This document shows, one piece after another, positions 5,075-42,678 of a DNA stretch of 64,000 nucleotides. The DNA lies in IMG/VR virus record IMGVR_UViG_3300025849_000011; one strand, written 5' to 3'. A program made the position numbers and the translations under genes. Source of the DNA: an uncultured virus (IMG/VR IMGVR_UViG_3300025849_000011). Lineage: Duplodnaviria; Heunggongvirae; Uroviricota; Caudoviricetes. Position 1 is the stretch's first letter. Each line of letters begins with the position of its first letter. The notes beneath the pieces were generated by a model, which saw nothing but the letters and a program-made list of their open reading frames with translations, had not been told where the DNA came from and did not search any database.

Positions 5075-5112
5075 TTTATTCTCCTTTTTATGTTGGGTAT
5101 AAATTTATTTCA

Positions 5113-6095: not shown

Positions 6096-6611
6096 TTATT
6101 TTATATACCACCATACATTATCTGGACCTACTTTGTGCTTTGGTGTTGATTGCACAACAGCCATTGCTACTTGAATAAGATTTATATCATGTCCAGACAC
6201 CAATCCACCTTTTCTAATTTTTGGAGTCCATAATTCAATATCCCTTTTTACGGAATCCCCATCATGTGAAGCATCAATAAAAACGTAATCAAGAGAACCA
6301 TCTTCAAACTGATTGTGTGCAAGATGTGTGAAGTCTCTAATTAATTTTGCCCTACCGTCAAAACCTTCACAAAATTTAATAAGTTCACCATACCATTCAA
6401 CAGGTGGTTGCTCACACAATTCCTCTGTAGTTGATATATCTTTTGCTTTCCAAATCTTATCGTTTAAAAATACATCAACGCCAATATGTGTTGTATTAGA
6501 ACAATTTACTGTAATGAACTTAAATGTTGGACCTCTCAACACTCCCAATTCTACACCAATCTTATAATTATTTGATCTGATTTGATCTGCTAACCAATGC
6601 GCTCTATTCAT
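6096..6611 (-). CDS. Class I SAM-dependent methyltransferase (Methyltransf_24-like)
   Basis: GVELGV..G, DYVFIDASH, GGLVSGHD. Confidence 0.8.
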   Translation of the reverse strand: MNRAHWLADQIRSNNYKIGVELGVLRGPTFKFITVNCSNTTHIGVDVFLNDKIWKAKDISTTEELCEQPPVEWYGELIKFCEGFDGRAKLIRDFTHLAHNQFEDGSLDYVFIDASHDGDSVKRDIELWTPKIRKGGLVSGHDINLIQVAMAVVQSTPKHKVGPDNVWWYIK

Positions 6612-9364: not shown

Positions 9365-9393
9365 ATTATAGCATATTCTATAATGATTGTCTA
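9365..9393 (-). promoter_or_regulatory. Sigma70-type promoter for uvsX-41
   Basis: TAGACA-17-TATAAT with extended TG. Confidence 0.65.
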
Positions 9394-15302: not shown

Positions 15303-16033
15303 GCTTCGTTTCTTTCTATGATATAACCACCAAATTCACCATAGCGAAAAAATTCAGTGTATTTGTATGAACTAAAAAGAGTTTCTGGATTTATCGGACG
15401 CTGTACACCAGACAAAGATAATTCTTTCTTAATAATATCATCTGGTTTTGCGCCACTTTCCATCTTTGCCCTCAAAGTAAGGCGAGAAAGCACAGTAGAT
15501 ACATAACCACCCGTTGGAATGGTTTTCTCTACTATCACCAACGCGCCATCATCTCTTAGGCTATCCATCATGCCATCAAGCAACAAGGTTCGTCTGTGTG
15601 GTGGTATGAACATCATTGTGAGGAACATTACCCCAAAGTCAAATTCTTCAAATGAATGTTGTGTAGCATCTGTAACAATCACAGGATTGTCACCAGTGTA
15701 CATATCAGCCATCTGTTGGCTTTTTTCAATCGGAATAAAGTCTACGTTTCTCTCAGTGAGAATAGACTTCAAGGTACGCTCTACATTACCTGTACTCGCA
15801 CCAACATCATAAACAGTACCCTGTTCTGGTATGTAGTGATTAGCGATTTGAGCAATAGCACTACTTACCATATCGTACCAAGGTAGTTGTTCGCGCACAT
15901 GATCGTCAAAGTTTCTTGCGACCTTGACGTCATTAAATGTCCAGTTTGTGGGTATATCAATCATATTTCCATACTTTCTTTTCATACATATGAATTTAAA
16001 TATTCGGTTTCTCCAAATAAACTCATAATACAT
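15299..16033 (-). CDS. CmoA-like (carboxy-SAM synthase family) protein
   Basis: WTF...VARNFDDHVREQLPWY, VYDVGASTG, GALVIVEK, FFRYGEFGG; true start may be the MIDIP Met. Confidence 0.8.
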   Translation of the reverse strand: MYYEFIWRNRIFKFICMKRKYGNMIDIPTNWTFNDVKVARNFDDHVREQLPWYDMVSSAIAQIANHYIPEQGTVYDVGASTGNVERTLKSILTERNVDFIPIEKSQQMADMYTGDNPVIVTDATQHSFEEFDFGVMFLTMMFIPPHRRTLLLDGMMDSLRDDGALVIVEKTIPTGGYVSTVLSRLTLRAKMESGAKPDDIIKKELSLSGVQRPINPETLFSSYKYTEFFRYGEFGGYIIERNEA

Positions 16034-16958
16034 TCCTATATGCGTATTCTATTGCTCTATCGGCTTCAACAGCCAAAGGTCTTTTTTCATATTTTCTAGA
16101 AGTCTCACTGTCTAGTTCTCTTATCAGTTGCTCCAACTCAAATGATGTGATTGGATACTTTTTACTTATTGCATTCATTGCAGTACTTACCATAATTTTA
16201 TATATCATAGCATATCTGCCAGAATTGTCAACACCAGAAATATCAAACCAATCTTGTATTTGACGTTTATTCACAAATGGACAATCTCTATATCCTGTCC
16301 ACTTAAAATCTAAATTATCTAGTTTATTCTTTTCATATTGAATTGCTCTATCCGCTATGTGTTTTGGCATACGGTCTTTGAAACTACTACCACTTTTCAC
16401 TTCATATGAATGTTTACTCATTAATTTGTTAGGATCAATATCACTACCAACATTATTGAATATAAAGTTGTTAGCATTAGAATAATTAGCAGGGATATAA
16501 TACATCCTGGATAAGTCTTTTGTTTGCCCATCTCCGATTTCACTGAGTTCTTTATTAAGAGCGTACCAAAAGTGGCGAATTTTAGAATTTTCAACCTCTT
16601 TACTGAGCGGAAATACAAGTCTAAACTTTGGGTGGTCAATAGAACTACTAGCGGTACTATAACAAATATAGGTATAATCGCCAAAGCGATTAAATAACTC
16701 ATCTTTTAAGTTTCCTTTAAAGACATGATCATCAACATCAACAGCAGTCCAATTTGCCCAATTAACCACATTCGCGTTTGCCCTAGTCGTATTAGATAAG
16801 TAAGTAGCAGGTGATATAAGTTGGGCATCTTTTTTACTTTCTATTTTTTGTTCTGATAATTTATATAGGAAATCCTTAAAGGCTTCCCACCGCGAGAAAT
16901 TCATTCTACGGTGGGTTTTGTTATCATATATAGATTTGAATATTGTAAGCGAGTACAC
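16023..16958 (-). CDS. Putative AEP-superfamily primase/PrimPol-like protein
   Basis: AVDVDD (DxD), YSTASS....KFRLVFPL, D..TKDLSRMYYIP. Confidence 0.6.
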   Translation of the reverse strand: MYSLTIFKSIYDNKTHRRMNFSRWEAFKDFLYKLSEQKIESKKDAQLISPATYLSNTTRANANVVNWANWTAVDVDDHVFKGNLKDELFNRFGDYTYICYSTASSSIDHPKFRLVFPLSKEVENSKIRHFWYALNKELSEIGDGQTKDLSRMYYIPANYSNANNFIFNNVGSDIDPNKLMSKHSYEVKSGSSFKDRMPKHIADRAIQYEKNKLDNLDFKWTGYRDCPFVNKRQIQDWFDISGVDNSGRYAMIYKIMVSTAMNAISKKYPITSFELEQLIRELDSETSRKYEKRPLAVEADRAIEYAYRNVL

Positions 16959-17299
16959 TACATATCCTTTAAGTCAGATTCCTTGACAAAAATACCGTCA
17001 ACCATGCGCCCTTTACGATCTTTAATATCGTTGTAAGCAACTGTTAAACACTCATTCATAGTAATATTATTACGTTTCATAATATTGATCATTACAACCA
17101 TCATATCACCTAAATCGTCACGAATATCATTACCTTTACAAACGCTGTCCGACAATTCTCCCAACTCTTGCATCAACTTCAAAACTTGGTCTTTGTCACT
17201 TGATCCATCAATCAAATTACGATTTTCGTGCCAATCACCAATTTTATTGATTAGTGCCATCACAGGAAATTCGTGCGTTTTGATTTTTTTAGTTTCCAT
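16958..17299 (-). CDS. MazG-like nucleotide pyrophosphohydrolase
   Basis: KLMQELGEL, DDLGD, AYNDIKDRKG. Confidence 0.85.
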   Translation of the reverse strand: METKKIKTHEFPVMALINKIGDWHENRNLIDGSSDKDQVLKLMQELGELSDSVCKGNDIRDDLGDMMVVMINIMKRNNITMNECLTVAYNDIKDRKGRMVDGIFVKESDLKDM

Positions 17300-17597: not shown

Positions 17598-17626
17598 TGA
17601 ATACATGATTCGTATTAGGGAGTCAA
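17598..17626 (-). promoter_or_regulatory. Promoter TTGACT-17-TATTCA with CGAATCA in spacer
   Basis: Same architecture as 14306-14334. Confidence 0.5.
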
Positions 17627-18351
17627 TAGAGAAATTCATTTAAATTTGTTCCTAATCTTTTTTCTGCTATTTTGAAATACTTTTCTTCTTTTTCTATTCC
17701 TATAAATTCTCTATTTGTATGGACGCAAGCAACTCCTGTAGTTCCAGAACCCATTGTATTATCAAGAACAACATCCCATTCATTAGTGTAAGTTTTTATC
17801 AAATATTCCATCAAACCTACTGGTTTTTGAGTAGGATGATAACCTTTTTCTTGTTTATATCTTATCACTGTTTTTGGGTATCTTGATCCTTCTGGGTTAT
17901 CCCTATGTTTTGATTCAGCATTGCCATACACTTCACCAATTTTTGCCGTATCGCTACTAAATCCAGAATACGGTGTACTATACCACATTTGAGGATTATA
18001 AGTTGGTTTCTCCCTATAAAATACTAAGATATTTTCATGGGATTTTAACGGCATTATCTTCACATTCATGGGGTTTGTGCCTTGAGGTTTTTCCCAAATC
18101 CATTCATATCTTAAATTATTTATATTAGAAGCAGCAAGAATTGTTGTGAATGGTTGCATTGAGGTAAAAACCATGGCTGCATTTTTCTTGCAAACCCTAT
18201 TATATTGTTCCCATAGTTTATCTAATGGAATAATAGAATCCCATTTACATGCAGTAGTGCCATATGGAAGATCAGCGAGAAGCATATCTACTGAATTATC
18301 TTCAATTGTAGGCAATACCTCTAAGCAATCCCCAAGTATAGTTTTTACCAT
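17623..18351 (-). CDS. DNA amino methyltransferase, beta class
   Basis: ADLPYG, WIWEK, HPTQKP, VLDNTMGSGTTG. Confidence 0.9.
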   Translation of the reverse strand: MVKTILGDCLEVLPTIEDNSVDMLLADLPYGTTACKWDSIIPLDKLWEQYNRVCKKNAAMVFTSMQPFTTILAASNINNLRYEWIWEKPQGTNPMNVKIMPLKSHENILVFYREKPTYNPQMWYSTPYSGFSSDTAKIGEVYGNAESKHRDNPEGSRYPKTVIRYKQEKGYHPTQKPVGLMEYLIKTYTNEWDVVLDNTMGSGTTGVACVHTNREFIGIEKEEKYFKIAEKRLGTNLNEFLY

Positions 18352-22992: not shown

Positions 22993-23201
22993 TTAAATTT
23001 CTCCAAAGTTCTACTATTTAATTCAGCCAGTATTTCATGATCAGACATATTTGGATATTCTATTCTAAAATATTGAACCAAATCTGCATTCGCTGAACAC
23101 TGTCTTGAAAATTGAATAGATTTTCCTACAGAAAGAATAAAATCAAAGAGACCTGTTAGACCTCTCGTTAAGAAGTTGTGCGTTGTTAGTATGTGTTGCA
23201 T
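22989..23201 (-). CDS. Hypothetical protein
   Basis: Start reassigned to MQHILTT after a GAGG RBS inside the hsp20 3' end. Confidence 0.55.
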   Translation of the reverse strand: MQHILTTHNFLTRGLTGLFDFILSVGKSIQFSRQCSANADLVQYFRIEYPNMSDHEILAELNSRTLEKFK

Positions 23202-23625
23202 TTGAGTTTTCCTCGTAATTGCCAATTTTAATTTTACGAGGACGCATTGATTCTGGAATGACGTACTGCAATTCAATTGCCAGAATACCATCTAGAATAT
23301 TTGCTCCGTTTACTTGTACGTGTTCAGACAGCCTAAAGGTTCGTTTAAATTTCTTTGTTGAAATGCCACGATGGATAAATTCTCTACCTTTAGAAACGTG
23401 TTCACCAGTTACTGTCAAAGTTCTATCTTTTACTTCAACATTAATTTCATCTTGTGAAAATCCAGCAATAGCAAGTTCAATCAAATAATCTGATTCTCCT
23501 GCTTTAATAATATTGTGTGGTGGATAGTGATCTTGAGCATGTTTAGCAGTGAACTCTAGTTCATTGAATAAATGGTCAAAACCCACGAAAGATGAACGTG
23601 GAAAAAGTGTTTGTAAGCCTGTCAT
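23143..23625 (-). CDS. Small heat shock protein Hsp20/IbpA
   Basis: VGFD.LF, YPPHNI, IELAIAGF, HRGIS, FKRTFRL, DGILAIEL; start MTGLQ after AAGGAG. Confidence 0.93.
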   Translation of the reverse strand: MTGLQTLFPRSSFVGFDHLFNELEFTAKHAQDHYPPHNIIKAGESDYLIELAIAGFSQDEINVEVKDRTLTVTGEHVSKGREFIHRGISTKKFKRTFRLSEHVQVNGANILDGILAIELQYVIPESMRPRKIKIGNYEENSNATHTNNAQLLNERSNRSL

Positions 23626-23629
23626 TGTT

Positions 23630-23652
23630 ATCTCCTTTTGATCAAGCAAGAT
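23630..23652 (-). promoter_or_regulatory. ROSE-like RNA thermometer hairpin
   Basis: AUCUU[G]CUU pairs with AAGGAGAU, with the bulged G of UUGCU opposite the Shine-Dalgarno. Confidence 0.65.
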
Positions 23653-23716
23653 TGTAATGGGACCGATTATTCGCATCCCCTTGGTTTGATTAGCATCAAG
23701 ATGCTAACTCATTACT

Positions 23717-23761: not shown

Positions 23762-24451
23762 TTAAGAAATTATGCTTTTTATTTTCCAAGGAGTGAAACA
23801 TACTGTTCCTAGACTTACATAGTCTGCACCTTTATCAAAATAAAATTCTGCATCATCCTTATTTGTAACTCCACCACCAGCGATTACAGTAATGCTAGGA
23901 TGTTTTCTCTTTATATATTCTATAATCCTTGTAGTATATGGTTTTAAAATTTTTCCACTTTGACCGCCATTTAAAGAATACAAAGTGTTGCTTGCATGTA
24001 TTTGATTATATCCTAAATCTACTATCTTGTCTATAAGACATTCTGTCGCAGTAGGTGGTATTTTGCATATACACCATTCTCTTTCACTCTTAGGAAATAA
24101 ATCAAAACCAGATAAATTTACCGCACCCACATCTTTATCAAGGTTTGGACAACTTATATTAATCTCAACAGATGAATTTTTATCTACTATACGAGACAGA
24201 TGTAGCCAATCATATTCATTTATTGCGGCAAGGCTCAACACATCTGTAGAGTTTGTTCTTTTTAAACCCTCATATATTCCAGCATTTCGCAATCCAATTT
24301 TATTAATCCATCCACCATTTTTATATCTAAGAGTTTTAAAAATTTGGGGAATAAGTCCTTCTCTTTTTTCAACGGTCCAACTTCCAGTTACGCTAATTGC
24401 GTTAGGAAGTTTTAAATAGTTTCCAAAAGGTGCTGATATAAAGTATTTCAT
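23762..24451 (-). CDS. pyrD: Dihydroorotate dehydrogenase-like FMN enzyme
   Basis: INKIGLRN.G, VEINISCPN, SNT, GGQSG, IAGGGV, GADYVSLGT. Confidence 0.75.
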   Translation of the reverse strand: MKYFISAPFGNYLKLPNAISVTGSWTVEKREGLIPQIFKTLRYKNGGWINKIGLRNAGIYEGLKRTNSTDVLSLAAINEYDWLHLSRIVDKNSSVEINISCPNLDKDVGAVNLSGFDLFPKSEREWCICKIPPTATECLIDKIVDLGYNQIHASNTLYSLNGGQSGKILKPYTTRIIEYIKRKHPSITVIAGGGVTNKDDAEFYFDKGADYVSLGTVCFTPWKIKSIIS

Positions 24452-24454
24452 AAT

Positions 24455-24928
24455 TTAATCCAAAAATGTTCTACGCCATTCCATTTTATATATTTCTTCT
24501 TCATCTATCGTCTTAGTAAAAGACTTAGGGAATTTTTTTATTGCTCTAAGTAATATTTTGATTTTTACATCAGATTGCATAATAGGTATTGATGCACCAC
24601 CATTTCTAGCCGCCAACCAACGGTGATGACCATCAACAATATAGTTATCTGAAGAAACCAGAAGTGGTTTTGCTTGACCAATAGTTTTTATTCGGCCCAT
24701 AGCCTTAACTATTTTATCTTTATTAAAATCAGATTGGGTGGCTCGTAGTCTTTTGGCTTTGACTTCTTTTCTTTCCATTTTTATACCTAAATTTTTCAAA
24801 TACTCTATAAGTTCATCATAATCTGCTGAACGAACTTGGGGCATATCTACTCTTGAGATACCAAGAGTATCTTTAGGTTTTGGTGTAGTAGTCCTTAACT
24901 CTAAGAGAACTTGACTATACTTACGCAT
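24455..24928 (-). CDS. ParB/Srx N-terminal domain protein, putative internal head protein
   Basis: ATQ, PLLVSSDNYIVDGHHRW; leader MRKYSQVLLE. Confidence 0.7.
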   Translation of the reverse strand: MRKYSQVLLELRTTTPKPKDTLGISRVDMPQVRSADYDELIEYLKNLGIKMERKEVKAKRLRATQSDFNKDKIVKAMGRIKTIGQAKPLLVSSDNYIVDGHHRWLAARNGGASIPIMQSDVKIKILLRAIKKFPKSFTKTIDEEEIYKMEWRRTFLD

Positions 24929-25322
24929 ATTTTATAACCTTATCTGGCGTATGAAAGTTTTTCTTACGCATAATTGTTTTCATTACAACATCAAATTCAT
25001 CTTTTCTTTGATCATATTTAACTGCTACTGGAATATTCAAATCAGATTGCATATCTTTAATTACCGCTTCAGCACCAGCCACACCTTTGAGTGACTTACC
25101 TTGTCTTGCGTAAATCTTTTTTATAAATTCTGCTAACTCTTTCATAGAGATACAAGGTGTATTTCTATCATCTCCCATCCTATCACCAAAATGACGAGTG
25201 AATTTGAAATCAATTCCATATTTTTTGAATAATTTATCAACAATAGATTCAAATGCTTTGATTTGTTTCATACCTACTAAATCACATTTATCTTCTATTA
25301 TAAAATTTTTGAATGTTTTCAT
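24921..25322 (-). CDS. Putative internal head protein, possible RelE/RegB-like RNase fold
   Basis: Leader MKTFKNFIIE; FTRHFGDR and C-terminal VVMKTIMRK. Confidence 0.5.
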   Translation of the reverse strand: MKTFKNFIIEDKCDLVGMKQIKAFESIVDKLFKKYGIDFKFTRHFGDRMGDDRNTPCISMKELAEFIKKIYARQGKSLKGVAGAEAVIKDMQSDLNIPVAVKYDQRKDEFDVVMKTIMRKKNFHTPDKVIKYA

Positions 25323-25597
25323 TTTTCTAACCTTTTTATTCTGGTTTCAAGTTCATCTATTTTTTTTGCTATTTTAGGAGATAAACTTCTCCAAGCATCA
25401 TCTGGTTGATCAAACCAAGTCCACCCAAACTTGTCTCTTATAGTATCTAGTAATATATCCCATTTAGAGTATAACCATAATCCAATTTTTGTATCTCTCA
25501 TATATGCTAAAAATAGTGCGCCAAATACCGAACCCATAATACCCGTATAAATCCATAAACGATCTGAAGCCATATTTTCAATCATATCCCAAATCAT
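25319..25597 (-). CDS. Small membrane protein
   Basis: One TM helix, C-terminal coiled coil. Confidence 0.6.
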   Translation of the reverse strand: MIWDMIENMASDRLWIYTGIMGSVFGALFLAYMRDTKIGLWLYSKWDILLDTIRDKFGWTWFDQPDDAWRSLSPKIAKKIDELETRIKRLEK

Positions 25598-26364
25598 TTT
25601 TTAAATTTCTTCAATTTACTTGAATAATGTTCAATACTATGATCATATATTCCATCAAAAATTTGTTTATTTTTCATGGCGCACCACCTACCCCTCAAAG
25701 AATCCTTTATCTTTTGCCAAAAGGACAATCTACGAATATTTCCATAATGATTAATATATCTCTCTGTGCCGTGATGCCTATATCCCATTATCCATAAAGG
25801 AACTGTTGGCACAATATCATTATTATTCCTAAATCTATAATGCTCAACATCCATACCTACACAAAATTCTTTACCACCAACTCTTGGTGAACCATATGTA
25901 AATAATATAGGATTTTTTTCTTCAAGTCTAGATGCACATAGTGTTGCCATAGCACCACCAAGAGAATGACCAGTAATCCAAAGTTGTTTTCTTTTACTTT
26001 TTTGAAGTAGTGCTTCAATATCAGACCAAAGTTTTCTTAATTCTATTTTAAATCCCATATGAACCATACCCTCAGTTTTAGATTTTCTTTTAAATGCAAG
26101 TAAATCTGCTTTAACATCTGAAAACTCTGTTGGTTCTGTACCTCTAAAAGCAACAATAATATTATCTTTATCTGAAAAGATATGACATTGTGCGCCATCA
26201 TTCTCTAAAAATTTATATGATTTGAAACCTAATTTTGATAATTCTCTTTTTGCTTTAGTTCCATCATGATAGGCCAAAGCAGATACTTCAGAAAAAAAAT
26301 AACTGAGAGCAAAAGTATCATTCCAATCTAGACTTTCACAATCCATAAAAAATTTTCTGGTCAT
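25594..26364 (-). CDS. Class 3 lipase
   Basis: VAFRGTE, VHMGF, WITGHSLGGAMA, TYGSPRVG, DIVP.VP, DHSI..Y. Confidence 0.9.
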   Translation of the reverse strand: MTRKFFMDCESLDWNDTFALSYFFSEVSALAYHDGTKAKRELSKLGFKSYKFLENDGAQCHIFSDKDNIIVAFRGTEPTEFSDVKADLLAFKRKSKTEGMVHMGFKIELRKLWSDIEALLQKSKRKQLWITGHSLGGAMATLCASRLEEKNPILFTYGSPRVGGKEFCVGMDVEHYRFRNNNDIVPTVPLWIMGYRHHGTERYINHYGNIRRLSFWQKIKDSLRGRWCAMKNKQIFDGIYDHSIEHYSSKLKKFKK

Positions 26365-26633
26365 TTTTTATCTCGCAACCTTGGCTCTTTGCGATTATAA
26401 TGAACAGTTACACTTGATAAGTTTTTTGGATCATTATTGAGTGGGTCACCATCTTTGTGATGAATATCTCTCCCATCAAAAGGCTCTGCCTTACCCTCTT
26501 TTTCCATCTTTCTTCTAGCGCGTTTTCTAGCGGCGTTTCTCTCCATCTGTTCTGGAGTTCCAAGATAGTTTTTTCTTTCTTTTTTGTAATCTCTCTGATA
26601 CTCATCAGTTATAAATATTTTAAACTTGATCAT
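26361..26633 (-). CDS. Small HNH-motif protein, putative internal head protein
   Basis: DIHHKDGDPLNN...NL......NR; leader MIKFKIFITDE. Confidence 0.7.
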   Translation of the reverse strand: MIKFKIFITDEYQRDYKKERKNYLGTPEQMERNAARKRARRKMEKEGKAEPFDGRDIHHKDGDPLNNDPKNLSSVTVHYNRKEPRLRDKK

Positions 26634-26863
26634 GATACATTATCCCAGAAGGTTTTACTCATTTCACCCATGGAAACTGTAGATGTACCAGATGCTGAAT
26701 TTACTGTTTTGCGAACACTTGTATATACGGCATGACCATTTGTAGTTCTAATACCGTTAGTTTGTTTTAACCATAGAGGTCTTAGTGGGCTATTAGCACC
26801 TGGATCAGGCGGCGAATTGTCATATTGCCAACTCGGATTGTTTGTAATAGTTACCCACGCCAT
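26630..26863 (-). CDS. Hypothetical protein
   Basis: 77 aa, AAGGAG RBS, late promoter upstream. Confidence 0.65.
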   Translation of the reverse strand: MAWVTITNNPSWQYDNSPPDPGANSPLRPLWLKQTNGIRTTNGHAVYTSVRKTVNSASGTSTVSMGEMSKTFWDNVS

Positions 26864-26878
26864 GTTTAAATCTCCTTA

Positions 26879-28087
26879 TCATTTGTTCTTACTATTTATA
26901 TGTTTAAGAAGATCGTTTTTACTTGTTTTATTAGTCTTAATAGAGAAATCTAATGCAGATTGTAAAGCATCACCTATACTCTTACCTTTAAACCCCAATT
27001 GAGAAACATCTTTTCCATTTATAGGTAATTCTTTAACTGAAAGATATTTAACACTTTTTAATTTTGATGATACTGTTGGTTTTCCTATAGCAGTAAGATA
27101 AGCATCAGCAGATTTAATATCGTTATCTTTAGCCCATCCAACTAATTTAACTAAATCCATATCTTTGTATGAAGTTACAGATTGAACTGCTTTTGAATCA
27201 ATATTAGATAGTTTCATTCCAGCCTTGGCGATTTTACCAGCATCTTGTTTATAACTCATCAAAACCATTCCTATAAAAGAACCATAATTTTTAGTTTCTA
27301 GTTTATCTAATGCTTTTAAATTAATGTCTTTAATAGATGCCTTTGGGAATAAATGTTTCATCAATCCACTTTCAAATAAAAGTTTTATACCGATTGATGG
27401 TTTTTTTGATTTGGTGAAAAGTTTTTTAAATTCTTCATTGAATCTATCAGAAGAAACTGATGAAATAGTATGTGCTTGTTTTTTCATTTCCTTGAAAGTA
27501 TTTTTTTCAATTTTAAATTCAAACCTAGCCGCGAATTGAATGGCTCTTAACATTCTTAAAGGATCATCTTCAAATGAAGTAGGACTGATCATACGAATTT
27601 CTTTATTCTTAATATCTTTCATACCCTTGCCATCAGTGTCAATAATCTCTCCAGTATCAACATCTTTAGCCAATTGATTTATCCAAAAATCTCTTCTCAA
27701 CTGATCTTGTTGTAAAGTAATACCTTTTCCTAATTGTACCTCAAAATCTTTATGACCAGCCCCAGTACTCTTAGAGTCAACTCTTGGTACTGAAATATCA
27801 ACATCTTCTTCTTCTGTTGAACCTGTTGGTACAAATTTCAGAATACCAAAAGATTTGCCAACCATATTCACTTTACCGTGAGGCTTTAATATTTCTTCTA
27901 AATCGCTTAGTTCTACACCAACAACGATTAAGTCTAAGTCTTTTGAAACCTTTCCAAGTAGTTCATCACGAACCACACCACCAATTTGATAGATTTTACC
28001 ACCAGCGTTTTTAATAGACTTTCTAACTTTCATAGTTAAAAGTTTTTCTAACATACTTTCATTTAAATGACATATAAAACTTTTCAT
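26879..28087 (-). CDS. cca: Class II tRNA nucleotidyltransferase (CCA-adding type, no HD domain)
   Basis: IGGVVRD.LLG...KDLD, QDQLRRDF.IN, FEDDPLRMLRA..FAARF, ELPINGKDV..LGFKG..IG; leader MKSFICHLNE. Confidence 0.9.
   Translation of the reverse strand: MKSFICHLNESMLEKLLTMKVRKSIKNAGGKIYQIGGVVRDELLGKVSKDLDLIVVGVELSDLEEILKPHGKVNMVGKSFGILKFVPTGSTEEEDVDISVPRVDSKSTGAGHKDFEVQLGKGITLQQDQLRRDFWINQLAKDVDTGEIIDTDGKGMKDIKNKEIRMISPTSFEDDPLRMLRAIQFAARFEFKIEKNTFKEMKKQAHTISSVSSDRFNEEFKKLFTKSKKPSIGIKLLFESGLMKHLFPKASIKDINLKALDKLETKNYGSFIGMVLMSYKQDAGKIAKAGMKLSNIDSKAVQSVTSYKDMDLVKLVGWAKDNDIKSADAYLTAIGKPTVSSKLKSVKYLSVKELPINGKDVSQLGFKGKSIGDALQSALDFSIKTNKTSKNDLLKHINSKNK
26893..26900 (-). promoter_or_regulatory. 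Late promoter TATAAATA
   Basis: Exact consensus at the 3' end of the cca gene. Confidence 0.65.
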
Positions 28088-28097
28088 TTATTATTAC

Positions 28098-28445
28098 CTA
28101 CCAATGCTGGGCGTCTGGATATTTTACAATTGCTCTAACTGCTCTTAATGCTAGTTTTGCAACTTTATCACCTCTATCATATAGTACAACCTCTGTACCA
28201 TTTACAAAATCAGATACATTCACACCTTTACCGATAAGAGTCATCGTTCTGTGTAGATAATCATTTTCATCGTAATTATATTCAAATCCTACTTTACCAC
28301 GTACTTCAACCCACTTGCTGCCTGGTAATGGCCTAATTCTTAGAATACCCATCTTACCTTGCCTAACATATGTCAAAGCATAGGCTTCTTTCTTTTTACG
28401 TTGATTTTTAGTGATTTCTGTTATAAATTTAGAAAAAAGTTTCAT
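28098..28445 (-). CDS. Hypothetical protein, putative internal head protein
   Basis: Leader MKLFSKFITE. Confidence 0.6.
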   Translation of the reverse strand: MKLFSKFITEITKNQRKKKEAYALTYVRQGKMGILRIRPLPGSKWVEVRGKVGFEYNYDENDYLHRTMTLIGKGVNVSDFVNGTEVVLYDRGDKVAKLALRAVRAIVKYPDAQHW

Positions 28446-29002
28446 GATACATAAGGCTTTATTATAGTTTCTATATTCTTAATAATTTTCTTATGCGTAG
28501 GACTCAAATGTTTTCTATCTTTTTTTACAGCGTCTAACGCCAATTTTGTATCGCCAGCATATTTTCTTTGCCATTCTGGTTTCTGCTGCTTAATATCAGA
28601 TACATTAGCAAGTCTATCAGCGAGTTTAATAACTAATGCCCAACTTGTCATGTTAACCATCTTATCTTTTATATACTCACCCTTACCACCTGCTGCTTCA
28701 AGATCATCTTTTTTAGTGGTCAATTGGTCAACAAGATTGGCAACCAACCCACCAAACTGCTTAACTAAGTCGGCGTGTGATAAATCAGTATCTTCTATAG
28801 TATCATGCAAATATGCTGCTTGAACTAATGCAGATAAATTTTTTGATTTTGGTTTAAATTTAGCAACTATTTTGGCAACTTCTTTTGGATGAGCGATATA
28901 TTCACCACCACTTTTTCTAAACTGCCCTTTGTGGGCTTTCGTCGCAGTTCTTAGCGCACTAAGCGCACTTTCATTTATAAGGTGAGATTTGAAACTCTGC
29001 AT
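28442..29002 (-). CDS. SpoT/Mesh1-type HD hydrolase (small alarmone hydrolase)
   Basis: AHKGQFRKSG..YIAHP.EVA, AAYLHDTIEDT, FG..VA.LV..LT, IKLADRLAN; leader MQSFKSHLINE. Confidence 0.9.
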   Translation of the reverse strand: MQSFKSHLINESALSALRTATKAHKGQFRKSGGEYIAHPKEVAKIVAKFKPKSKNLSALVQAAYLHDTIEDTDLSHADLVKQFGGLVANLVDQLTTKKDDLEAAGGKGEYIKDKMVNMTSWALVIKLADRLANVSDIKQQKPEWQRKYAGDTKLALDAVKKDRKHLSPTHKKIIKNIETIIKPYVS

Positions 29003-29422
29003 TTATTTTCTTCCTATATTATACTTGGGACATAGTTCCCAATTATTTTTTTCTTTAAAAGGAATAATCTTAATCTGTCGCAGAGGTGCTAAATTTTTAG
29101 CAACTGATTCATTCTGTATGGAGACTAGACCCCAATCAGACATAAGTGTAGCAATAGTATTTCTACGGCCTATATCGCTTTCTTCTAAGTTTGACTTTTT
29201 TCCATCTAGCAAAAATAATTCTTTAAAATGTACTATAAAGTATCTACCTTGTTTATGAAGGATATGACACGATTGAAATAATTTATTTTCTTTTCTACTT
29301 GATACGCCAATTCTTGTTAATGTTTCTCTTACCTTCAAAAAATCATCAGGTTCATTTAATGTTATCTCTAACATATCATTTGGCGACCAACTTATTATAT
29401 TTGTTTCCTCATTCATTGTCAA
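29003..29422 (-). CDS. regA: Translational repressor RegA
   Basis: DDFLKVRETLTRIG, QSCHILHKQGRYFIVHFKEL. Confidence 0.95.
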   Translation of the reverse strand: MTMNEETNIISWSPNDMLEITLNEPDDFLKVRETLTRIGVSSRKENKLFQSCHILHKQGRYFIVHFKELFLLDGKKSNLEESDIGRRNTIATLMSDWGLVSIQNESVAKNLAPLRQIKIIPFKEKNNWELCPKYNIGRK

Positions 29423-29456
29423 CTCACTTTTTTGTTATATTCATTAATGACAATGG

Positions 29457-29464
29457 TATTTATA
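29457..29464 (-). promoter_or_regulatory. Late promoter TATAAATA
   Basis: Exact consensus upstream of regA and the internal-protein block. Confidence 0.7.
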
Positions 29465-29469
29465 TAATT

Positions 29470-29847
29470 TTAATTTTTACCGCCCTTACGCAACTTAAAT
29501 CTAATATGATCTAAATGCTCTTTAGGAATTAATTTCAAAACTTCTCTCGCCTTTTGATTTGAATATCCATAATACTCCTTAATTGAATCTAAAGCATCCA
29601 TTTTATCAGCCTTAGTCCATTTAGAGAACCGCTTTCTTTTTCTAACAATATTACGCATAAAATCATATTGTAATCTGTTATCAATGTGGTGATGCTTATT
29701 CATCTCATTTGCAGCAAGGATAGTGTCATTAAAATAGGATAATGATCTATTAATGTAGTATGATTTATATGCTTTCTCAGTGATATCATCAACCATAATA
29801 TCGTCTTTGTTATGGTTGATTGAGTTTAAATAATCAAAGTGGTTCAT
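29470..29847 (-). CDS. 62: Clamp loader small subunit gp62
   Basis: Start MNHFDYLNSIN; YYINRSLS, KRKRFSKW, EYYGYS. Confidence 0.9.
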   Translation of the reverse strand: MNHFDYLNSINHNKDDIMVDDITEKAYKSYYINRSLSYFNDTILAANEMNKHHHIDNRLQYDFMRNIVRKRKRFSKWTKADKMDALDSIKEYYGYSNQKAREVLKLIPKEHLDHIRFKLRKGGKN

Positions 29848-30455
29848 AGGTTTTGTATCACTGTTTGCATACGCATTACATCCATTACACAATCATGTCG
29901 CGCATCATGTTTAAAAAACTTTTCTGCACATCCTTCTGGAATATAATCGTTCTTAACATCAGACCCCCAAAGCAAACCATCAAGAAATGATCTTGTATCA
30001 CGAACCATCCAAAATGGATAAGGAACTTTTTTACCAGTATCATTTAAGATACCTTCAAAGAAAGGAATATCAAAAGTATTTCCGCGAGAAAACACTGTTT
30101 TTAGGTTATTGATATTTACATTCTGCACAAAAAAGTTATAGGTTTCGCTAATATCTTTATCATTTTCTGATGGAACCATCACTGCTGCTGTTGTTTCTTT
30201 GGGCTGTTTATTCCACCAATCAAGTGTAGATTTTGAAATCTTACGATCATAAACTTCCACTTGCTTTTTAACATCATATTTAATACTAACACTACTATCT
30301 AAAAGTTCTTCATAACTGTATGGATTATTTGTAAATCTTGCCCTAGAGAAAGTAAGCAGACCTAAAGATAATACAACACCTCTGTTTACATCAACAGAAA
30401 GTGTTTCAAAATCATATATCACACAATCATTTAACCCTTCATAAGCAACACTCAT
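29844..30455 (-). CDS. dexA: DexA-like 3'-5' exonuclease
   Basis: IYDFETL, STLDWW, SRGNTFD, RDTRS, HDARHD. Confidence 0.8.
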   Translation of the reverse strand: MSVAYEGLNDCVIYDFETLSVDVNRGVVLSLGLLTFSRARFTNNPYSYEELLDSSVSIKYDVKKQVEVYDRKISKSTLDWWNKQPKETTAAVMVPSENDKDISETYNFFVQNVNINNLKTVFSRGNTFDIPFFEGILNDTGKKVPYPFWMVRDTRSFLDGLLWGSDVKNDYIPEGCAEKFFKHDARHDCVMDVMRMQTVIQNL

Positions 30456-31417
30456 TCTATGAACTCCACATTTGCCATTATTTCAGTTAGACATGCAACC
30501 GTATTGATTTCTAAATCAGCAACAAAAGCATTCTTATATTGATATTCCGCAAGAATTAGAACAACTTGAGGGATAGCATGAGGTTTGATATGATTTGACA
30601 TTTTATCATAAATTCCTCTAAAGATTGCAGAACTATCAGTATCAATGTTGTTCACCACCCAAGACCGCATTTTCTTAAAATCTTTATCTTTGATGAATTT
30701 TAAGAGAGCATCAATTTCATTGATACCAGTACTATTAGAACCGCTATTACTAAGAACACCACCCACAGATCGTCTTTGTACTTCATTTAAAACCCTTCTC
30801 CAATCAGGAGCATGTTTCATGATAATCTTAACAAGGTCTTGATCTTCAAATTTTACATTCTCTTGTTCAAGAATATTTCTAGCATGTTTAAAAAAATCAC
30901 CACAAAGACTTGCCATTTCTTTTTTGGATGTATTAAATTCATAAACACCACATCTTGAATGAAGTGGTTCAATAATACGATTTTTAAAATTGCATGTCAT
31001 TATGAAACGACAATTATTACTAAATTCCTCTATAAATCCACGTAATGCAGGTTGAGTTGATTGTGGATTGAGATAGTCTGCCTCATCCAAAATTACAACT
31101 TTATAACCACCTTGTAAAGATACAGTAGAAGCAAATTGTTTAATCTTTCCACGTAAAGTGTCAATATTGCCATCCTCAGAACCATTAATAATTATATAAT
31201 CAAGTCCTAAAGTATGACATAACGCTTTGGCTATTGTTGTTTTACCAAGACCAGCAGTTCCAGTAAACAACATGTTTGGAATTTCACTGGTCTTAATAAT
31301 TTGTTTAAATGTTTCTTTTAGATCAGATGGTAGAATAGTCCTCTCAATAGTTTGTGGGCGGTATTTCTCCACCCACAAAAATTCATTATCCAACTTTCGT
31401 TGTAATTCAACATCCAT
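30452..31417 (-). CDS. 44: Clamp loader large subunit gp44
   Basis: LWVEKYRP, GTAGLGKT, ILDEAD, PLHSRC. Confidence 0.95.
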   Translation of the reverse strand: MDVELQRKLDNEFLWVEKYRPQTIERTILPSDLKETFKQIIKTSEIPNMLFTGTAGLGKTTIAKALCHTLGLDYIIINGSEDGNIDTLRGKIKQFASTVSLQGGYKVVILDEADYLNPQSTQPALRGFIEEFSNNCRFIMTCNFKNRIIEPLHSRCGVYEFNTSKKEMASLCGDFFKHARNILEQENVKFEDQDLVKIIMKHAPDWRRVLNEVQRRSVGGVLSNSGSNSTGINEIDALLKFIKDKDFKKMRSWVVNNIDTDSSAIFRGIYDKMSNHIKPHAIPQVVLILAEYQYKNAFVADLEINTVACLTEIMANVEFIE

Positions 31418-39368: not shown

Positions 39369-40721
39369 CTATGCACCCAGAATGTTGTCCACTCTGAAGA
39401 TTCTGTAGTATTGGTTTGTTTGCTTTGTTGCAAGACCGTTTGCTGGCGAAGAACCAACAAATGGGTTTGATACCATGCCGTAACGAGTTTTGAAACCAAT
39501 TTTTGGCTGGAAATCATTCTCACCAACGGCGCGAACCATTGTGAGAGGTACATATGGGCAATAGAAGATACCAGCATCATATGCATTTGTACCTTTATAA
39601 CCTACAGTGATGTAGTCAACAGTGGCATATGGGTCAACATATACTTTTGTGCGTCCGTTAAGAACACCAGCAAATGTGTTACCAGTGTCATCAACATTCA
39701 AGTTGGTTGACATTGCTGGAGCATAATCCAACATACCAGTTGCTGCCAAGCACGATGCAACATCACTAGATGTGATGATGAAGTTACCGCGACCTCTACG
39801 AGTTTCTTTGGCAATGTTATTGGCTTCACGCTCAATTTGAACCATGAGACCTTTAAACTTCTCAACGCTCCAACGACCATCAGCATCTGTTTGAAGATCA
39901 AAAACACCATTCAACAAAGTGTTACCAGTGGATGCACCAGTTTTTGCTTGTGAGTTGATGGTACGAATAACTTCGCGGTTGATTTCCGCGAGGATTTCAG
40001 TTGAAAGAATGTTGGCGAGTTCGCTTTCAGCGTCCAGACCATGAATTGCTTTCAAATCCTGTGCGAGTTCAAGCGAATATTCTGCTTTCAATGCGCGTGT
40101 TTTGGCAGATACAGTTGCTTTTTCAATGGTGAAACCCATTTCAGCAAATGCACTTGCACCAGATGTTCCAAGTGCTTCGCCATTTGCAAGCGACATTCCT
40201 GGAGTACCAACAGCAGGATCATTACGGTTATTGTCAATGCTTGAGTCAGGTGTTCCTGAATCTGCTACACCAGAAAGACCAGAACCATCGGCTACCATGT
40301 TTGCAGCAGAATCTCCAGAGAAAGCAGTTACTGCTTCATTAAAGAGTGCTTCATCATTTGCACTTGCCCCACCGCGAGAAGTTTCATAGGTTGATTTCAT
40401 TGCGAAAATCAGACCAGTTGGACCTGTCATTGGCTGAACACCACATACATCATATGCCATCATGTTTGGCATTGCGCGGCGAACCAACGAAATAAGTACA
40501 GGGTTCCAGTTAGCAACATTTGCTGTGTTGTTTGCTGGTGCTGCTTCTGTCAGTTGACCGAAACCACCTTGTTGTGTTGCTTGCTCACGCAAAGCAATTT
40601 CTTGGTTTTCAAGCACAACAGCAGTAACTGCTTTGCGGTGCTTGTCTTGGATGGAACCAGCAGATTCTTCATTGAGAACCGGACCCCATTTTTCAATCAG
40701 TTGATTGTAATTCATTTCCAT
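39369..40721 (-). CDS. 23: Major capsid protein gp23
   Basis: LVRRAMP, GVQPMTGPTGLIFA, RALKAEYSLELAQDLKAIHGLDAE, GFKTRYG. Confidence 0.98.
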   Translation of the reverse strand: MEMNYNQLIEKWGPVLNEESAGSIQDKHRKAVTAVVLENQEIALREQATQQGGFGQLTEAAPANNTANVANWNPVLISLVRRAMPNMMAYDVCGVQPMTGPTGLIFAMKSTYETSRGGASANDEALFNEAVTAFSGDSAANMVADGSGLSGVADSGTPDSSIDNNRNDPAVGTPGMSLANGEALGTSGASAFAEMGFTIEKATVSAKTRALKAEYSLELAQDLKAIHGLDAESELANILSTEILAEINREVIRTINSQAKTGASTGNTLLNGVFDLQTDADGRWSVEKFKGLMVQIEREANNIAKETRRGRGNFIITSSDVASCLAATGMLDYAPAMSTNLNVDDTGNTFAGVLNGRTKVYVDPYATVDYITVGYKGTNAYDAGIFYCPYVPLTMVRAVGENDFQPKIGFKTRYGMVSNPFVGSSPANGLATKQTNQYYRIFRVDNILGA

Positions 40722-40733
40722 AATGGATACTCC

Positions 40734-41816
40734 TTAGTTACTTGCTTTAATAGCAGCGACATACTTAGCCATGCTATCTGATACGTTTACATCTACATCC
40801 GTATCTTCTTGGGTTTCTTCTGTAAGTGTTTCTTCTACGATAGCAGCAGGTGCGACTGCTGGTGTACCATTGAAGTAAGACTCTTTGATGGTGTCAACTT
40901 TAAATTTGAAATTATCTTCATTTTCAAATTCTACGCCTTCAACCAGTTTTTCCAATTTTGATGCTTCAGTACTAGCAAGATCATATGATGCTTCTGCAAT
41001 AATAGCAGAACGCTTCAAATTAGAAATTGTTTCGTTCATATCAACATTGGTTTGGGTTTGCTTATTCAAAAGTTCTTCTAATTCTAGAACTTCTTCAGCG
41101 AGTTGGTCTACTAAGTCAACTTTGGTTTCTGGAACTTCAATGTAAGATTCCGTGAACAAGTCTTTCAACTTACCCATGAAGCCTTCAGCGATTTCAGTGC
41201 GAATACCTTGCTCTACAGCAATACGGTTTTCTTCCATCCATTGTTCAACAACGTAGTTTAAGTAAGAATCAATCTTGTCTACAAGGTCACCCTTTGCTTC
41301 ATTGATCGCTTCTTCAGTCTCTGTAGCGTATTGCTCTTCCAGAGATGTGACTTTTTCTGCGAATGCTTCATCCAATTCTTGAACTTTAGTTGCAACTCTT
41401 GTAGTAAGTGCTGCCTCAAAAATTGTACTTGCTTTTGCTTTAAAGTCTTCTGATAGAGATTCATCAGCAGAAATAAGGACTTCCAAATCAGCAGTAGAAG
41501 TATCTTCTACCATTGTTTCTTCTTCCATATCTACTTCAATTTCTTCACCCATCATTTTTTCATATGCTGCTTTGATTTCAGTCTTGGTTTTCATACCATT
41601 CATTTTATCAGTCATAGCATTAACCATACCCGCCTTAGTTTTAGGGGGGGATGCTTTTTTAGTAACTTGAGCCGCTTTCTGAACAGATTGTATGGAATCA
41701 TCTTCCGCACCTTCTGGATCATCTGAAAGTGATGCTTCAGTTACTTCTTCGTGAGATTCCACAATTTCGTTGTCATCATGGACCTCAAGTTCCTGGTCTT
41801 GTGTTTGATCAGTCAT
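40734..41816 (-). CDS. 22: Prohead core scaffold gp22
   Basis: LSEDFKAKASTIFEAA, YLNYVVEQW, very acidic. Confidence 0.92.
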   Translation of the reverse strand: MTDQTQDQELEVHDDNEIVESHEEVTEASLSDDPEGAEDDSIQSVQKAAQVTKKASPPKTKAGMVNAMTDKMNGMKTKTEIKAAYEKMMGEEIEVDMEEETMVEDTSTADLEVLISADESLSEDFKAKASTIFEAALTTRVATKVQELDEAFAEKVTSLEEQYATETEEAINEAKGDLVDKIDSYLNYVVEQWMEENRIAVEQGIRTEIAEGFMGKLKDLFTESYIEVPETKVDLVDQLAEEVLELEELLNKQTQTNVDMNETISNLKRSAIIAEASYDLASTEASKLEKLVEGVEFENEDNFKFKVDTIKESYFNGTPAVAPAAIVEETLTEETQEDTDVDVNVSDSMAKYVAAIKASN

Positions 41817-41829
41817 ACTTGACTCCTTT

Positions 41830-42480
41830 TTATTTCAGCAACGAGAGGAAATTTTCAAACCCACGAATTTGCGCTTCTTGCAAACCTTTTGATGGAGTTC
41901 TTTTTATTTCAGTCTCTATTTTTTCAATTTCTTGAGGTTTAATCATTCCATTATCCCATACCCAGTCTACACCTTCCATTATTCCATTAACGAAAGCATT
42001 AGGTGCGCTTGGGTCTTGAACAATGTCAACGGTGTTAAGAATAAAATCATCCTTAACTTCCATTATTCCATTACGTTTCTCAAGACTTCCCATACCACGA
42101 GTCGAAACACCTAGTTGACAACCACCATCAAGTAAACCCTTAACAACTTTACCCATAGGAGTGTCTAATATAAGTGCTTTACCCATCACATCATTTCCCT
42201 CAAACTTGAGGTCCGTAATACGATGGGATACCTTATCCAAGTTAACAGTTGGACCGTCTGGATGATTTAACTCACCTACAGCGCGTCCAGTTTTAACTTG
42301 TTCTTTTACATATTTGTTGATCGCATTTTCCATAATAGGCTTTGGATACATACGACCATTTCTATTCTTTGCTTCTGCTTGTGCAAAAACGCCTTCTATT
42401 TGATAAGACTTTTCACCATTTTCTTTTGCTTCAGTGATTAAATCTAACGCACCGTCACAGTACTCAGCAATTAGTTTCAT
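41830..42480 (-). CDS. 21: Prohead protease gp21
   Basis: NRNGRMY, GELNHP, GVSTRGMGSL, DPSAPNA. Confidence 0.96.
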   Translation of the reverse strand: MKLIAEYCDGALDLITEAKENGEKSYQIEGVFAQAEAKNRNGRMYPKPIMENAINKYVKEQVKTGRAVGELNHPDGPTVNLDKVSHRITDLKFEGNDVMGKALILDTPMGKVVKGLLDGGCQLGVSTRGMGSLEKRNGIMEVKDDFILNTVDIVQDPSAPNAFVNGIMEGVDWVWDNGMIKPQEIEKIETEIKRTPSKGLQEAQIRGFENFLSLLK

Positions 42481-42483
42481 GTC

Positions 42484-42678
42484 TTATCCTTTATATTGCT
42501 TAATGAATTCTTTTGCCATGGTCATCGCTTCTTTTTCTGAACTATAATTGTCCAAATGCTCACCATCAATATCAACTTTAAATTCTTTTCCTACTTTTTT
42601 AATATCAACTTTAGCACCATCTACTTTCATAGATTTTTCAATTAGTAGGTTTTCTTTTAATTCTTTAAAAGTTTTCAT
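42484..42678 (-). CDS. Prohead core protein (gp68 position)
   Basis: Leader MKTFKELKE; late promoter at 42709-42716. Confidence 0.55.
   Translation of the reverse strand: MKTFKELKENLLIEKSMKVDGAKVDIKKVGKEFKVDIDGEHLDNYSSEKEAMTMAKEFIKQYKG

Follow-up and report, generated by a model that had tools for sequence, protein, structure and literature searches.

A variable array of putatively packaged enzymes, including an alarmone hydrolase-type protein and a CCA-adding-type nucleotidyltransferase, behind regA of an uncultured marine T4-like phage

In phage T4, a stretch of 10 N-terminal residues, the capsid targeting sequence (CTS), suffices to package the internal protein IPIII. Residues 4 and 7 of this sequence are important for its targeting, 8 and 10 for its processing by gp21, which cleaves after L/I-x-E. 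The CTS brings a protein into the scaffolding core of the prohead, and once gp21 has removed it, the mature protein enters the cell along with the DNA; GFP and beta-galactosidase provided with this sequence are packaged and delivered into cells (PMC9026906, cited from excerpts of the article, as are PMC5512222 and PMC7229694 below). In the GenBank record of T4, ipII and ipIII begin with MKTYQEFIAE, and ipI begins with MKTFKEFTST. T4 also repairs, by means of Pnkp and Rnl1, host tRNA cut by the anticodon nuclease PrrC. Polyvalent proteins, described from phages and conjugative elements, are multidomain proteins predicted to be packaged and to enter the cell together with the DNA (Iyer et al. 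2017, PMC5512222). Phage-encoded single-domain HD hydrolases of the RelA/SpoT type are known as well, such as PaSpo of Salmonella phage SSU5 and PbcSpo of PVP-SE1, which neutralise every toxSAS enzyme tested (PMC7229694), and the CCA enzymes of jumbo phages have been read as tRNA repair enzymes (Iyer et al., PMC7824862). Here, we describe three genes at positions 26879-29002 of a 64,000-nucleotide stretch of viral DNA (IMG/VR record IMGVR_UViG_3300025849_000011; the whole stretch is called the window below), which encode a small alarmone hydrolase-type HD protein, a 115-residue protein (unk115) and a class II tRNA nucleotidyltransferase of the CCA-adding type (the transferase). We consider it moderately probable that they belong to a variable array of packaged, injected cargo enzymes that, once in the cell, would reset alarmone signalling and mend the 3' ends of tRNAs.

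Like IPI, IPII, IPIII and Alt of T4, these proteins begin with a decapeptide pattern ending in L/I-x-E, and homologues of the T4 head proteins are encoded in the window. As with the T4 internal proteins, the cargo is small, basic and highly variable and its genes form a plastic array, and the tagged families of relatives include an ADP-ribosyltransferase, the enzyme class of Alt, which is known to be packaged (PMC5512222). In contrast to the T4 cargo, the payload would consist of an alarmone hydrolase, a 44-kDa CCA-adding enzyme and ParB-like and HNH domains, the array lies after regA, two leaders have His at position 7, and packaging is a prediction here. PaSpo, PbcSpo and the small alarmone hydrolase (SAH) of Vibrio phage pv27 have no capsid tag, whereas here the HD domain is preceded by a CTS-like leader and a variable linker. 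As in polyvalent proteins, the unk115, ParB-like, CCA and HD domains and a further 133-residue protein (unk133) are found joined in proteins of 300-1900 aa of other phages, whereas in the window they are separate genes, each with its own tag, and fusions occur only in relatives; the term 'CCA-adding' occurs 0 times in PMC5512222, and the excerpts of that paper (12 of 57 matching passages) describe the RelA/SpoT domain as a synthetase, not a hydrolase. The transferase shares with the CCA enzymes of bacteria and jumbo phages the class II head and neck and motifs A, B and D, with the length of the Bacillus type and no HD domain, but differs from them in its capsid tag, in missing the NCBIfam cut-offs and in having relatives fused N-terminally to an HD domain or C-terminally to a domain with two HxT/S motifs. 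The likeness to T4 Pnkp and Rnl1 would lie in the restoration of host tRNA damaged by a defence, although the acceptor end instead of the anticodon loop would be repaired, by enzymes delivered rather than made after infection. No description of a packaged alarmone hydrolase or CCA enzyme was found in the literature searched, which covered papers accessible without subscription. What is new is the payload and its breadth, together with the equivalence of tagged cassettes with polyvalent fusions; the delivery route is already known from T4.

Three co-directional genes with a shared leader

The window comes from an uncultured marine T4-like myovirus and carries almost all of its genes on the minus strand, including those for DNA polymerase, clamp, clamp loader, regA, gp55 and UvsX/Y, as well as those for capsid, scaffold, prohead protease, portal, sheath, tube and terminase. 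By capsid protein, the closest cultured phages are C48C1 (66%), the Methylophilales phage Melnitz (60%) and Pelagibacter phage HTVC008M (58%). The closest cultured relatives infect OM43 and SAR11, and the host of the present phage is probably an oligotrophic marine bacterium. Positions 26879-29002 are occupied exactly by three co-directional open reading frames (ORFs), those of HD, unk115 and the transferase (Table 1). The HD ORF starts one base after the end of regA, which heads the gap-free run regA-HD-unk115-CCA; the unk115 ORF overlaps the HD ORF by 4 nt, and the transferase ORF begins 10 nt beyond unk115. Near-identical DNA was found in marine metagenomes from 13 studies. The region was also covered by contigs of four RNA libraries (three studies), for which strand, ends and level are not given and DNA carry-over is possible; such coverage does not prove transcription. 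Two RNA-library contigs (X15 and X16) join position 27293 to 28474, skipping 1180 bases from the middle of the CCA gene to the end of the HD gene; the shorter side of this joint has only 21 letters, a chimera or a cassette variant is possible, and the joint was set aside.

The leader pattern shared by the three proteins, M-K/Q-x-F-x-x-F/H-L/I-x-E, has an aromatic residue at position 4, F/H at 7, L/I at 8 and E at 10, with the processing site of the HD protein shifted by one residue (I9-N-E11), and it matches the T4 CTS position by position at residues 1, 4, 7, 8 and 10. A strict form of this pattern (M..[FY]..[FYHW][LIMVT].E, at an ATG that opens a frame of 50 codons or more) recovered exactly ipII and ipIII from 16 kb of T4. 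The same search gave three matches in the window, all of them on the gene strand between 24921 and 28445, and none on the other strand; across 819,089 bases from 94 distinct related IMG/VR loci, the gene strand had 219 matches and its complement 0. Given this strand-specific distribution, the leader is not a product of chance.

Homologues of T4 head proteins complete this picture. A gp21-type prohead protease, which is expected to cut off the leaders, is encoded together with a gp22-type scaffold, a portal homologue and a gp23-type capsid protein that shows L-T-E followed by A at residues 57-60, a candidate maturation site. Within this head module, a 64-aa ORF adjoining the protease gene also has a leader-like N-terminus, with a TATAAATA box, similar to T4 late promoters, 31 nt upstream of it. 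The leader that a preliminary description of this DNA had noticed on all three genes was confirmed, and its reading as a packaging signal is supported by the CTS match and the gp21, gp22 and gp23 homologues.

The leader pattern was retained in the homologues of the HD protein, while its letters and the linker of 0-7 residues that precedes the domain start (L-N-E-S-A-L) varied, and in the cultured non-T4 phage pv27 the SAH has nothing ahead of its domain; for these reasons, the leader is an added module. The conserved domain start itself holds an L-x-E site. At the DNA level, the mean column identity of the leader region was only 56%, and the idea that these regions are recombination sites was dropped. 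In fusion proteins, a leader or an L/I-x-E remnant was found at the domain joints.

By its sequence, the HD protein belongs to the RelA/SpoT hydrolase family and consists of a single domain. It was matched by Pfam HD_4 along residues 16-152 (57.9 bits, cut-off 27.2; 1.3e-15) and by the NCBIfam model spoT_relA (1.6e-27) along profile positions 1-138 of 687 only, which correspond to the hydrolase part, so that the synthetase part is absent. Matches in the PDB included Rel hydrolase domains (4.9e-17) and MESH1 of human (4.7e-12) and fly (1.4e-9), followed by weaker ones, about 1e-6, to bacterial SAHs (1.5e-6) and a (p)ppApp hydrolase. The motifs HxxQxR, HP, HD, ED and KLADRLxN are all intact and align with those of Rel hydrolase domains, and residues H24, R29, H38-P39, H66-D67, E70-D71 and K126-LAD-RL-x-N133 were invariant across 21 aligned homologues, from the 81 loci with an HD gene. 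The metal-binding and catalytic roles of these residues are known from RelSeq and Mesh1. The predicted mature protein has 175 aa and an isoelectric point (pI) of 9.7.

The transferase was matched by PolyA_pol in its head (65.6 bits, 7e-18) and by PolyA_pol_RNAbd in its neck (59 bits, 3.8e-16), both above the cut-offs, and a Pfam scan detected no HD domain in it. Its motifs A, B and D (GGVVRD at 36, DLD at 50, RRD at 131 and DDPLR at 174) were kept in 20 long-form relatives. The top PHROG was phrog_2244, tRNA nucleotidyltransferase (4.9e-58), and the only full-length match, below the cut-off, was NF009814, the Bacillus-type CCA tRNA nucleotidyltransferase, along residues 20-378. Every NCBIfam CCA equivalog cut-off was missed (best 124-127 bits versus 290-451) and the pcnB model, at 115 bits and also below its cut-off, came close to the CCA models; the transferase is a divergent member of class II, and on sequence grounds, CCA specificity is likely. 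The tail domain PF13735 (tRNA_NucTran2_2) was not seen in the transferase of the window at E<0.01 and was present in close relatives. Among the nearest CCA cluster representatives (the best 120 of 2197 at E<=1e-10, with 49-96% identity), 91 bore the strict leader, and most of the others had a variant leader or an N-terminal truncation.

Two of the 14 long forms scanned (P0064 and P0071) were fusions with the order leader-HD(PF01966)-CCA, in which the HD domain gave no BLAST match at 1e-3 with the HD protein of the window. In addition, about 20 CCA representatives of 541-570 aa (P0031, P0032, P0083 and about 17 more) add, through an I-N/T-E-E joint, a C-terminal domain of ~130 aa with two nearly invariant HxT/S motifs, which also exists as a stand-alone tagged ORF of 143 aa in 8 contigs (L134-L141, around 4953-5381). 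Pfam gave only sub-threshold matches of this domain to 2H phosphoesterases (E 0.006-0.022), the AF2 model of the 143-aa protein had a pLDDT of 38, and a PDB profile search with it found no match; from its two conserved motifs, the domain is a possible 2H phosphoesterase. The repeated joining of the CCA enzyme to putative phosphoesterases points to the healing and rebuilding of damaged tRNA 3' ends, and the role in tRNA-end repair that had been suggested for the transferase gains support from these fusions. The rest of the earlier gene assignments also held: the HD protein is a standalone SpoT/Mesh1-type enzyme by its HD_4, spoT_relA and PDB matches and its motifs, the transferase is a class II enzyme without its own HD domain by its Pfam matches, and the ORFs and the Pfam, PHROG and NCBIfam searches leave a single 115-aa gene of no known family between them.

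A cassette array behind regA

Gene maps were drawn for 91 distinct loci, which were fetched with HD and unk115 queries, so the shares that follow are biased toward those two genes. HD, unk115 and CCA genes occurred together in 18 loci, HD and unk115 in 15, HD alone in 48, unk115 and CCA without HD in 2, and unk115 alone in 8. In 29 of the 33 loci with both HD and unk115, the unk115 start was at most 40 nt away from the HD stop. The conserved linkage expected by the preliminary description was therefore largely absent, being found only in a near clade (18 of the 81 HD loci), and its view of the three genes as one dedicated system was not supported, given the HD genes without CCA (63 of 81) and the CCA genes without HD (2 loci). 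Rather than an operon with a constant set of genes, the locus is an array of cassettes that follows regA, which is the conserved left anchor in relatives.

The 156 distinct tagged proteins from related loci fell into 22 families, one of them probably a false internal start in gp15. They included HD_4, the CCA enzyme, unk115, unk133, DUF6267, DUF5824, DUF6321 and HNH, as well as a HAD-like phosphatase, an S-adenosylmethionine lyase and an ADP-ribosyltransferase. In the window, unk133, a ParB-like domain protein with a variant leader and a small HNH protein with a near-leader belong to the same array, and relatives of the latter bear the strict leader (MKTFKAYLCE).

Several tagged genes adjoin HD genes in the relatives. 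A DUF6267 protein (377-418 aa; PF19782, 5e-98) follows HD directly in 20 of the 81 HD loci (L047-L059, L069, L071, L076, L081, L085, L093 and L098); this family had no PDB match, a PHROG without function and nothing in Atlas, and by eye its K-W-D-G stretch resembles ligase motif I, a reading that is unverified. An ADP-ribosyltransferase-like protein (PF03496 2.6e-5, PF01129 3.3e-4) adjoins HD genes at L069:1047-1985 and in L076, L083 and L093, and an S-adenosylmethionine lyase (PF23780 1.9e-12) does so at L066:3167-3751. HD_4 was also found embedded in long ORFs at L066:3808-7398 (1197 aa), L096:5218-6942 (575 aa) and L076:5635-6747 (371 aa), with an unk133-like segment in the first two and DUF5824 in L066; as L/I-x-E sites directly precede the HD domain, these may be polyproteins cut by the prohead protease. 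A 484-kb uncultured phage (L108; LR756508.1, 82000-90000) carries HD_4-like and CCA genes 2 kb apart, with a further nucleotidyltransferase-like ORF within 6 kb and no T4-type leaders; a peptidyl-tRNA-hydrolase-like ORF and a Ro/vWA-like pair were recognized there by eye only.

Unk115 gave no match to any family of Pfam, PHROGs or NCBIfam. Behind its leader, a basic stretch is followed by a conserved domain of ~90 aa, and the predicted mature protein has a pI of 9.9. Its AF2 model (pLDDT 71.9) produced no convincing fold match (best E of 0.06 in Foldseek, best Z of 3.8 in VIA-align), complex prediction with the HD protein scored 0.00, a value without weight either way, and tblastn along 50,697 phage records found no match. 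The invariant polar residues E47, R49, K51, E55, H65, K73, S78 and N82 leave an enzymatic or nucleic-acid-binding role open. Leads from Atlas features were weak (0.81-0.85), pointing to clusters partly labelled Acb1, LigT and tRNA_lig_CPD. The idea that unk115 is half a 2H phosphoesterase was rejected, with a profile-profile probability of only 3.6% against the two-HxT/S domain of the CCA fusions.

A profile search of 1.84 billion representatives recovered 224 relatives of unk115 at E<=0.001, mostly inside multidomain proteins: among the 149 examined for size, 20 had at most 160 aa and 70 more than 400 aa. Segments like those of the array were present in 31 of these 149 chains (ParB-like in 21, unk133 in 11, CCA in 4), as in a ParB-like-unk115-CCA protein of 960 aa and an unk133-unk115-CCA protein of 761 aa, in parallel with the HD fusions to unk133 and DUF5824 in L066 and L096. 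A Pfam scan of 62 longer proteins found a family in 28, namely NT5C nucleotidase (8), DUF5661 (6), GNAT (5), a P-loop kinase of the AAA_33/zeta-like kind (4) and PolyA_pol (2), with Cu/Zn SOD, GH19, ParB_N, DUF6934 and DNA polymerase I once each. Stand-alone unk115 genes were found in L022-L028. By its sequence relationships, unk115 is a domain with promiscuous fusion partners that occurs in multidomain phage proteins of the polyvalent type. Many of these multidomain proteins (P0132-P0199) begin with a second kind of leader, M-K/R-I/L-x-D/E-I/L-x-x-E, which in many cases is followed by a conserved module of ~50 aa (GRIVKGVNTT...) and may be the packaging tag of another phage lineage.

Delivery with the phage DNA and competing explanations

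From the observed gene structure, protein families, intact catalytic motifs, leader with its non-random distribution and genes for protease, scaffold and capsid, we infer packaging, cleavage, ejection, substrates and timing as follows. The HD, unk115 and CCA genes, which follow regA, would encode internal proteins of a marine T4-like myovirus. Their transcription would be late, with the TATAAATA box 35 nt ahead of regA as a weak promoter candidate. The tag would take the proteins into the scaffolding core of the prohead, a gp21-type protease would remove it after L/I-x-E, and the mature proteins would leave the head with the DNA into the cell. There, the hydrolase would lower (p)ppGpp/(p)ppApp through removal of the 3'-pyrophosphate, possibly also from pyrophosphorylated tRNA, and the transferase would rebuild CCA at tRNA 3' ends; the third item delivered would be a small basic protein derived from a domain common in the multidomain injected proteins of other phages. 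The enzymes would have to arrive as protein, because a starved, dormant or defence-arrested cell cannot make them.

Several observations weigh against this reading. HD genes lack a CCA gene in 63 of the 81 HD loci, the HD-CCA link being confined to the near clade, and the search for a cultured relative that has these genes found none: phage C48C1 encodes neither HD_4 nor PolyA_pol, and the strict leader is absent from the 147-kb genome of HTVC008M. His in place of Phe/Tyr at position 7 of the HD and CCA leaders may not support targeting. All five predicted mature proteins of the array are basic (pI 9.5-10.0), but A-T-rich genomes yield basic proteins anyway. Regarding late expression, 11 of the 14 TATAAATA boxes on the gene strand sit 19-65 nt ahead of an ORF start, mostly of structural genes, but their total does not exceed that of shuffled sequences (15 versus 10.9, with 13 of 100 shuffles reaching 15), so late expression is only suggested. 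Finally, the candidate hydrolase could have other nucleotides with a 3'-phosphate as its substrates, and the transferase cannot be told apart from A-adding enzymes or poly(A) polymerases by its sequence alone.

An unlikely alternative is that HD, unk115 and CCA form a dedicated counter-defence against toxSAS enzymes such as CapRel and FaRel2, in which the hydrolase would strip the 3'-pyrophosphate from tRNA, the CCA enzyme would rebuild the ends and unk115 would be their partner. CapRel does pyrophosphorylate tRNA (PMC9712102), and the SAHs of PVP-SE1 and SSU5 neutralise CapRel, FaRel2, PhRel, PhRel2 and FaRel in E. coli, a use against such defences that the authors proposed for phages (PMC7229694); the order HD-unk115-CCA retained in 18 contigs and the proximity of both enzyme genes in the 484-kb phage fit this proposal too. 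However, the linkage stops at the near clade, and a general module suits unk115 better than a specific partner, since its domain turns up alone as well as in fusions with many enzymes that are unrelated to each other (NT5C, GNAT, P-loop kinase, SOD). Moreover, CapRel is triggered late, by newly made capsid protein (PMC9712102), and hence makes no call for delivery at injection. No RelA/SpoT synthetase family was named by Pfam among the 14 ORFs of 23762-31417 or by PHROGs among 58 further ORFs.

It is also rather improbable that the leader is a shared translation-initiation or regulatory sequence, and the enzymes ordinary cytoplasmic ones made after infection, with the hydrolase tuning the stringent response of the host and the transferase maturing phage or host tRNAs. 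The genes do lie in the replication-gene region directly after regA, whose product is a repressor that binds the start regions of mRNAs, and cultured phages encode untagged SAH and CCA genes that necessarily act as cytoplasmic enzymes. Against this, the leader is conserved as a peptide, at positions 1, 4, 7, 8 and 10, while its DNA varies, and its pattern is that of the T4 CTS as established by experiment, protease site included; it is present on the small ORF of the head module and on the Alt-class ADP-ribosyltransferase, and it persists, at least as an L/I-x-E remnant, at the domain joints of fusions. As for tRNA maturation, searches of the window and of contigs from 5 relatives, the latter only 17-28% complete, detected no tRNA gene, with ~70% of the genome unseen.

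Still less probable is a role of the HD protein as the end-healing partner of the transferase, rather than as an alarmone hydrolase in vivo, by which it would remove 2',3'-cyclic phosphate, 3'-phosphate or 3'-pyrophosphate from cleaved tRNA. The HD domain of E. coli Cca has been reported to remove such phosphates from tRNA ends. Relatives of the transferase hold a putative phosphoesterase in the same chain (HD in P0064 and P0071, the two-HxT/S domain in ~20 long forms), whereas in the window nothing fills this role in cis, and the HD gene is found two genes upstream. Yet this HD protein is specifically of the RelA/SpoT/Mesh1 type with every hydrolase motif kept, is unlike the HD domain of the fusions by BLAST, and is mostly found without a CCA gene. 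Very improbable is an RNA-tailing role of the transferase, as a poly(A) polymerase or A-adding enzyme that would, for instance, destabilise host mRNA. In favour of it are the pcnB score and the Aquifex chains deposited as 'poly A polymerase' among its best PDB matches; against it are the full-length match to the Bacillus-type CCA model, the tRNA_NucTran2_2 tail domain in close relatives, the best PHROG and the intact motif D.

Further genes of the window and meaning of the tag

The array also contains leaderless genes, namely a class-3 lipase and two small ORFs of 92 and 77 aa, and the lipase and the 92-aa ORF are missing from several close relatives. Its right edge, conserved in relatives, is formed by a short TIM-barrel protein similar to dihydroorotate dehydrogenase, adjoined by an Hsp20 homologue. 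Farther away, the window encodes an untagged MazG-like pyrophosphatase, from a family linked to alarmone or nucleotide-pool control, an ORF with the label of a tRNA methyltransferase, which may be a further tRNA-directed function, and an unusually dense set of four ORFs with DNA methyltransferase matches.

Table 1. Positions of the three genes, the other array members, head genes and further features of the window.
Feature	Positions	Strand	Leader, matches and remarks
DNA methyltransferase PHROG match	6096-6611	-	
DNA methyltransferase PHROG match	9391-10575	-	
DNA methyltransferase PHROG match	14340-15302	-	
ORF with tRNA methyltransferase label	15299-16033	-	phrog_4752, 1.9e-48
MazG-like pyrophosphatase	16958-17299	-	phrog_1992 6e-39, phrog_715
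DNA methyltransferase PHROG match	17623-18351	-	
Hsp20 homologue	23143-23676	-	
Dihydroorotate-dehydrogenase-like protein	23762-24451	-	DHO_dh 1.8e-13
ParB-like domain protein, 157 aa	24455..24928	-	MRKYSQVLLE (variant); phrog_2859, ParB-like PHROGs, parB_part 1.6e-4
unk133, 133 aa	24921..25322	-	MKTFKNFIIE; phrog_23027 matches the C-terminal part only
Small ORF, 92 aa	25319-25597	-	
Class-3 lipase	25594-26364	-	Lipase_3 1.8e-24
Small HNH protein, 90 aa	26361..26633	-	MIKFKIFITDE (near-leader); HNH_3 1.5e-7
Small ORF, 77 aa	26630-26863	-	
Class II tRNA nucleotidyltransferase (CCA-adding type), 402 aa	26879..28087	-	MKSFICHLNE
unk115, 115 aa	28098..28445	-	MKLFSKFITE
Small alarmone hydrolase-type HD protein, 186 aa	28442..29002	-	MQSFKSHLINE (residues 1-11)
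regA translational repressor	29003..29422	-	Translat_reg (Pfam) 1.3e-42
TATAAATA, T4 late-promoter-like box	29457..29464	-	35 nt upstream of the regA start
gp23-type major capsid protein	39369..40721	-	phrog_138 4e-160
gp22-type scaffold	40734..41816	-	phrog_237 7.7e-73; 14 L/I-x-E sites
gp21-type prohead protease	41830..42480	-	phrog_207 head maturation protease 1e-78
64-aa ORF adjoining the protease gene	42484..42678	-	starts MKTFKELKENLLIE

A tentative and rather doubtful extension of the packaged-cargo reading is that marine T4-like phages carry a 'resuscitation kit', in which an alarmone hydrolase, a CCA enzyme, end-healing phosphoesterases and more tagged enzymes would be injected with the DNA and would return a starved, dormant or defence-arrested cell to transcription and translation before phage gene expression is possible, its domains being present as separate CTS cassettes in T4-like phages and bundled as polyvalent proteins in others.

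In the ocean, most bacteria grow slowly or are starved, and it is an open question how an infection by lytic phages begins in such cells. If the packaged-cargo reading is true, the delivered hydrolase and tRNA-end repair enzyme would bypass the stringent response and translation-blocking defences at time zero, and the T4-type head, whose known payload comprises Alt and a few small inhibitors, would turn out to carry a large set of exchangeable enzymes. The tag would also offer a simple sequence rule for recognizing injected proteins in uncultured phages, which in this small sample gave 22 families, most of them without known function, and it connects two so far separate descriptions, those of the T4 internal proteins and of the polyvalent proteins.

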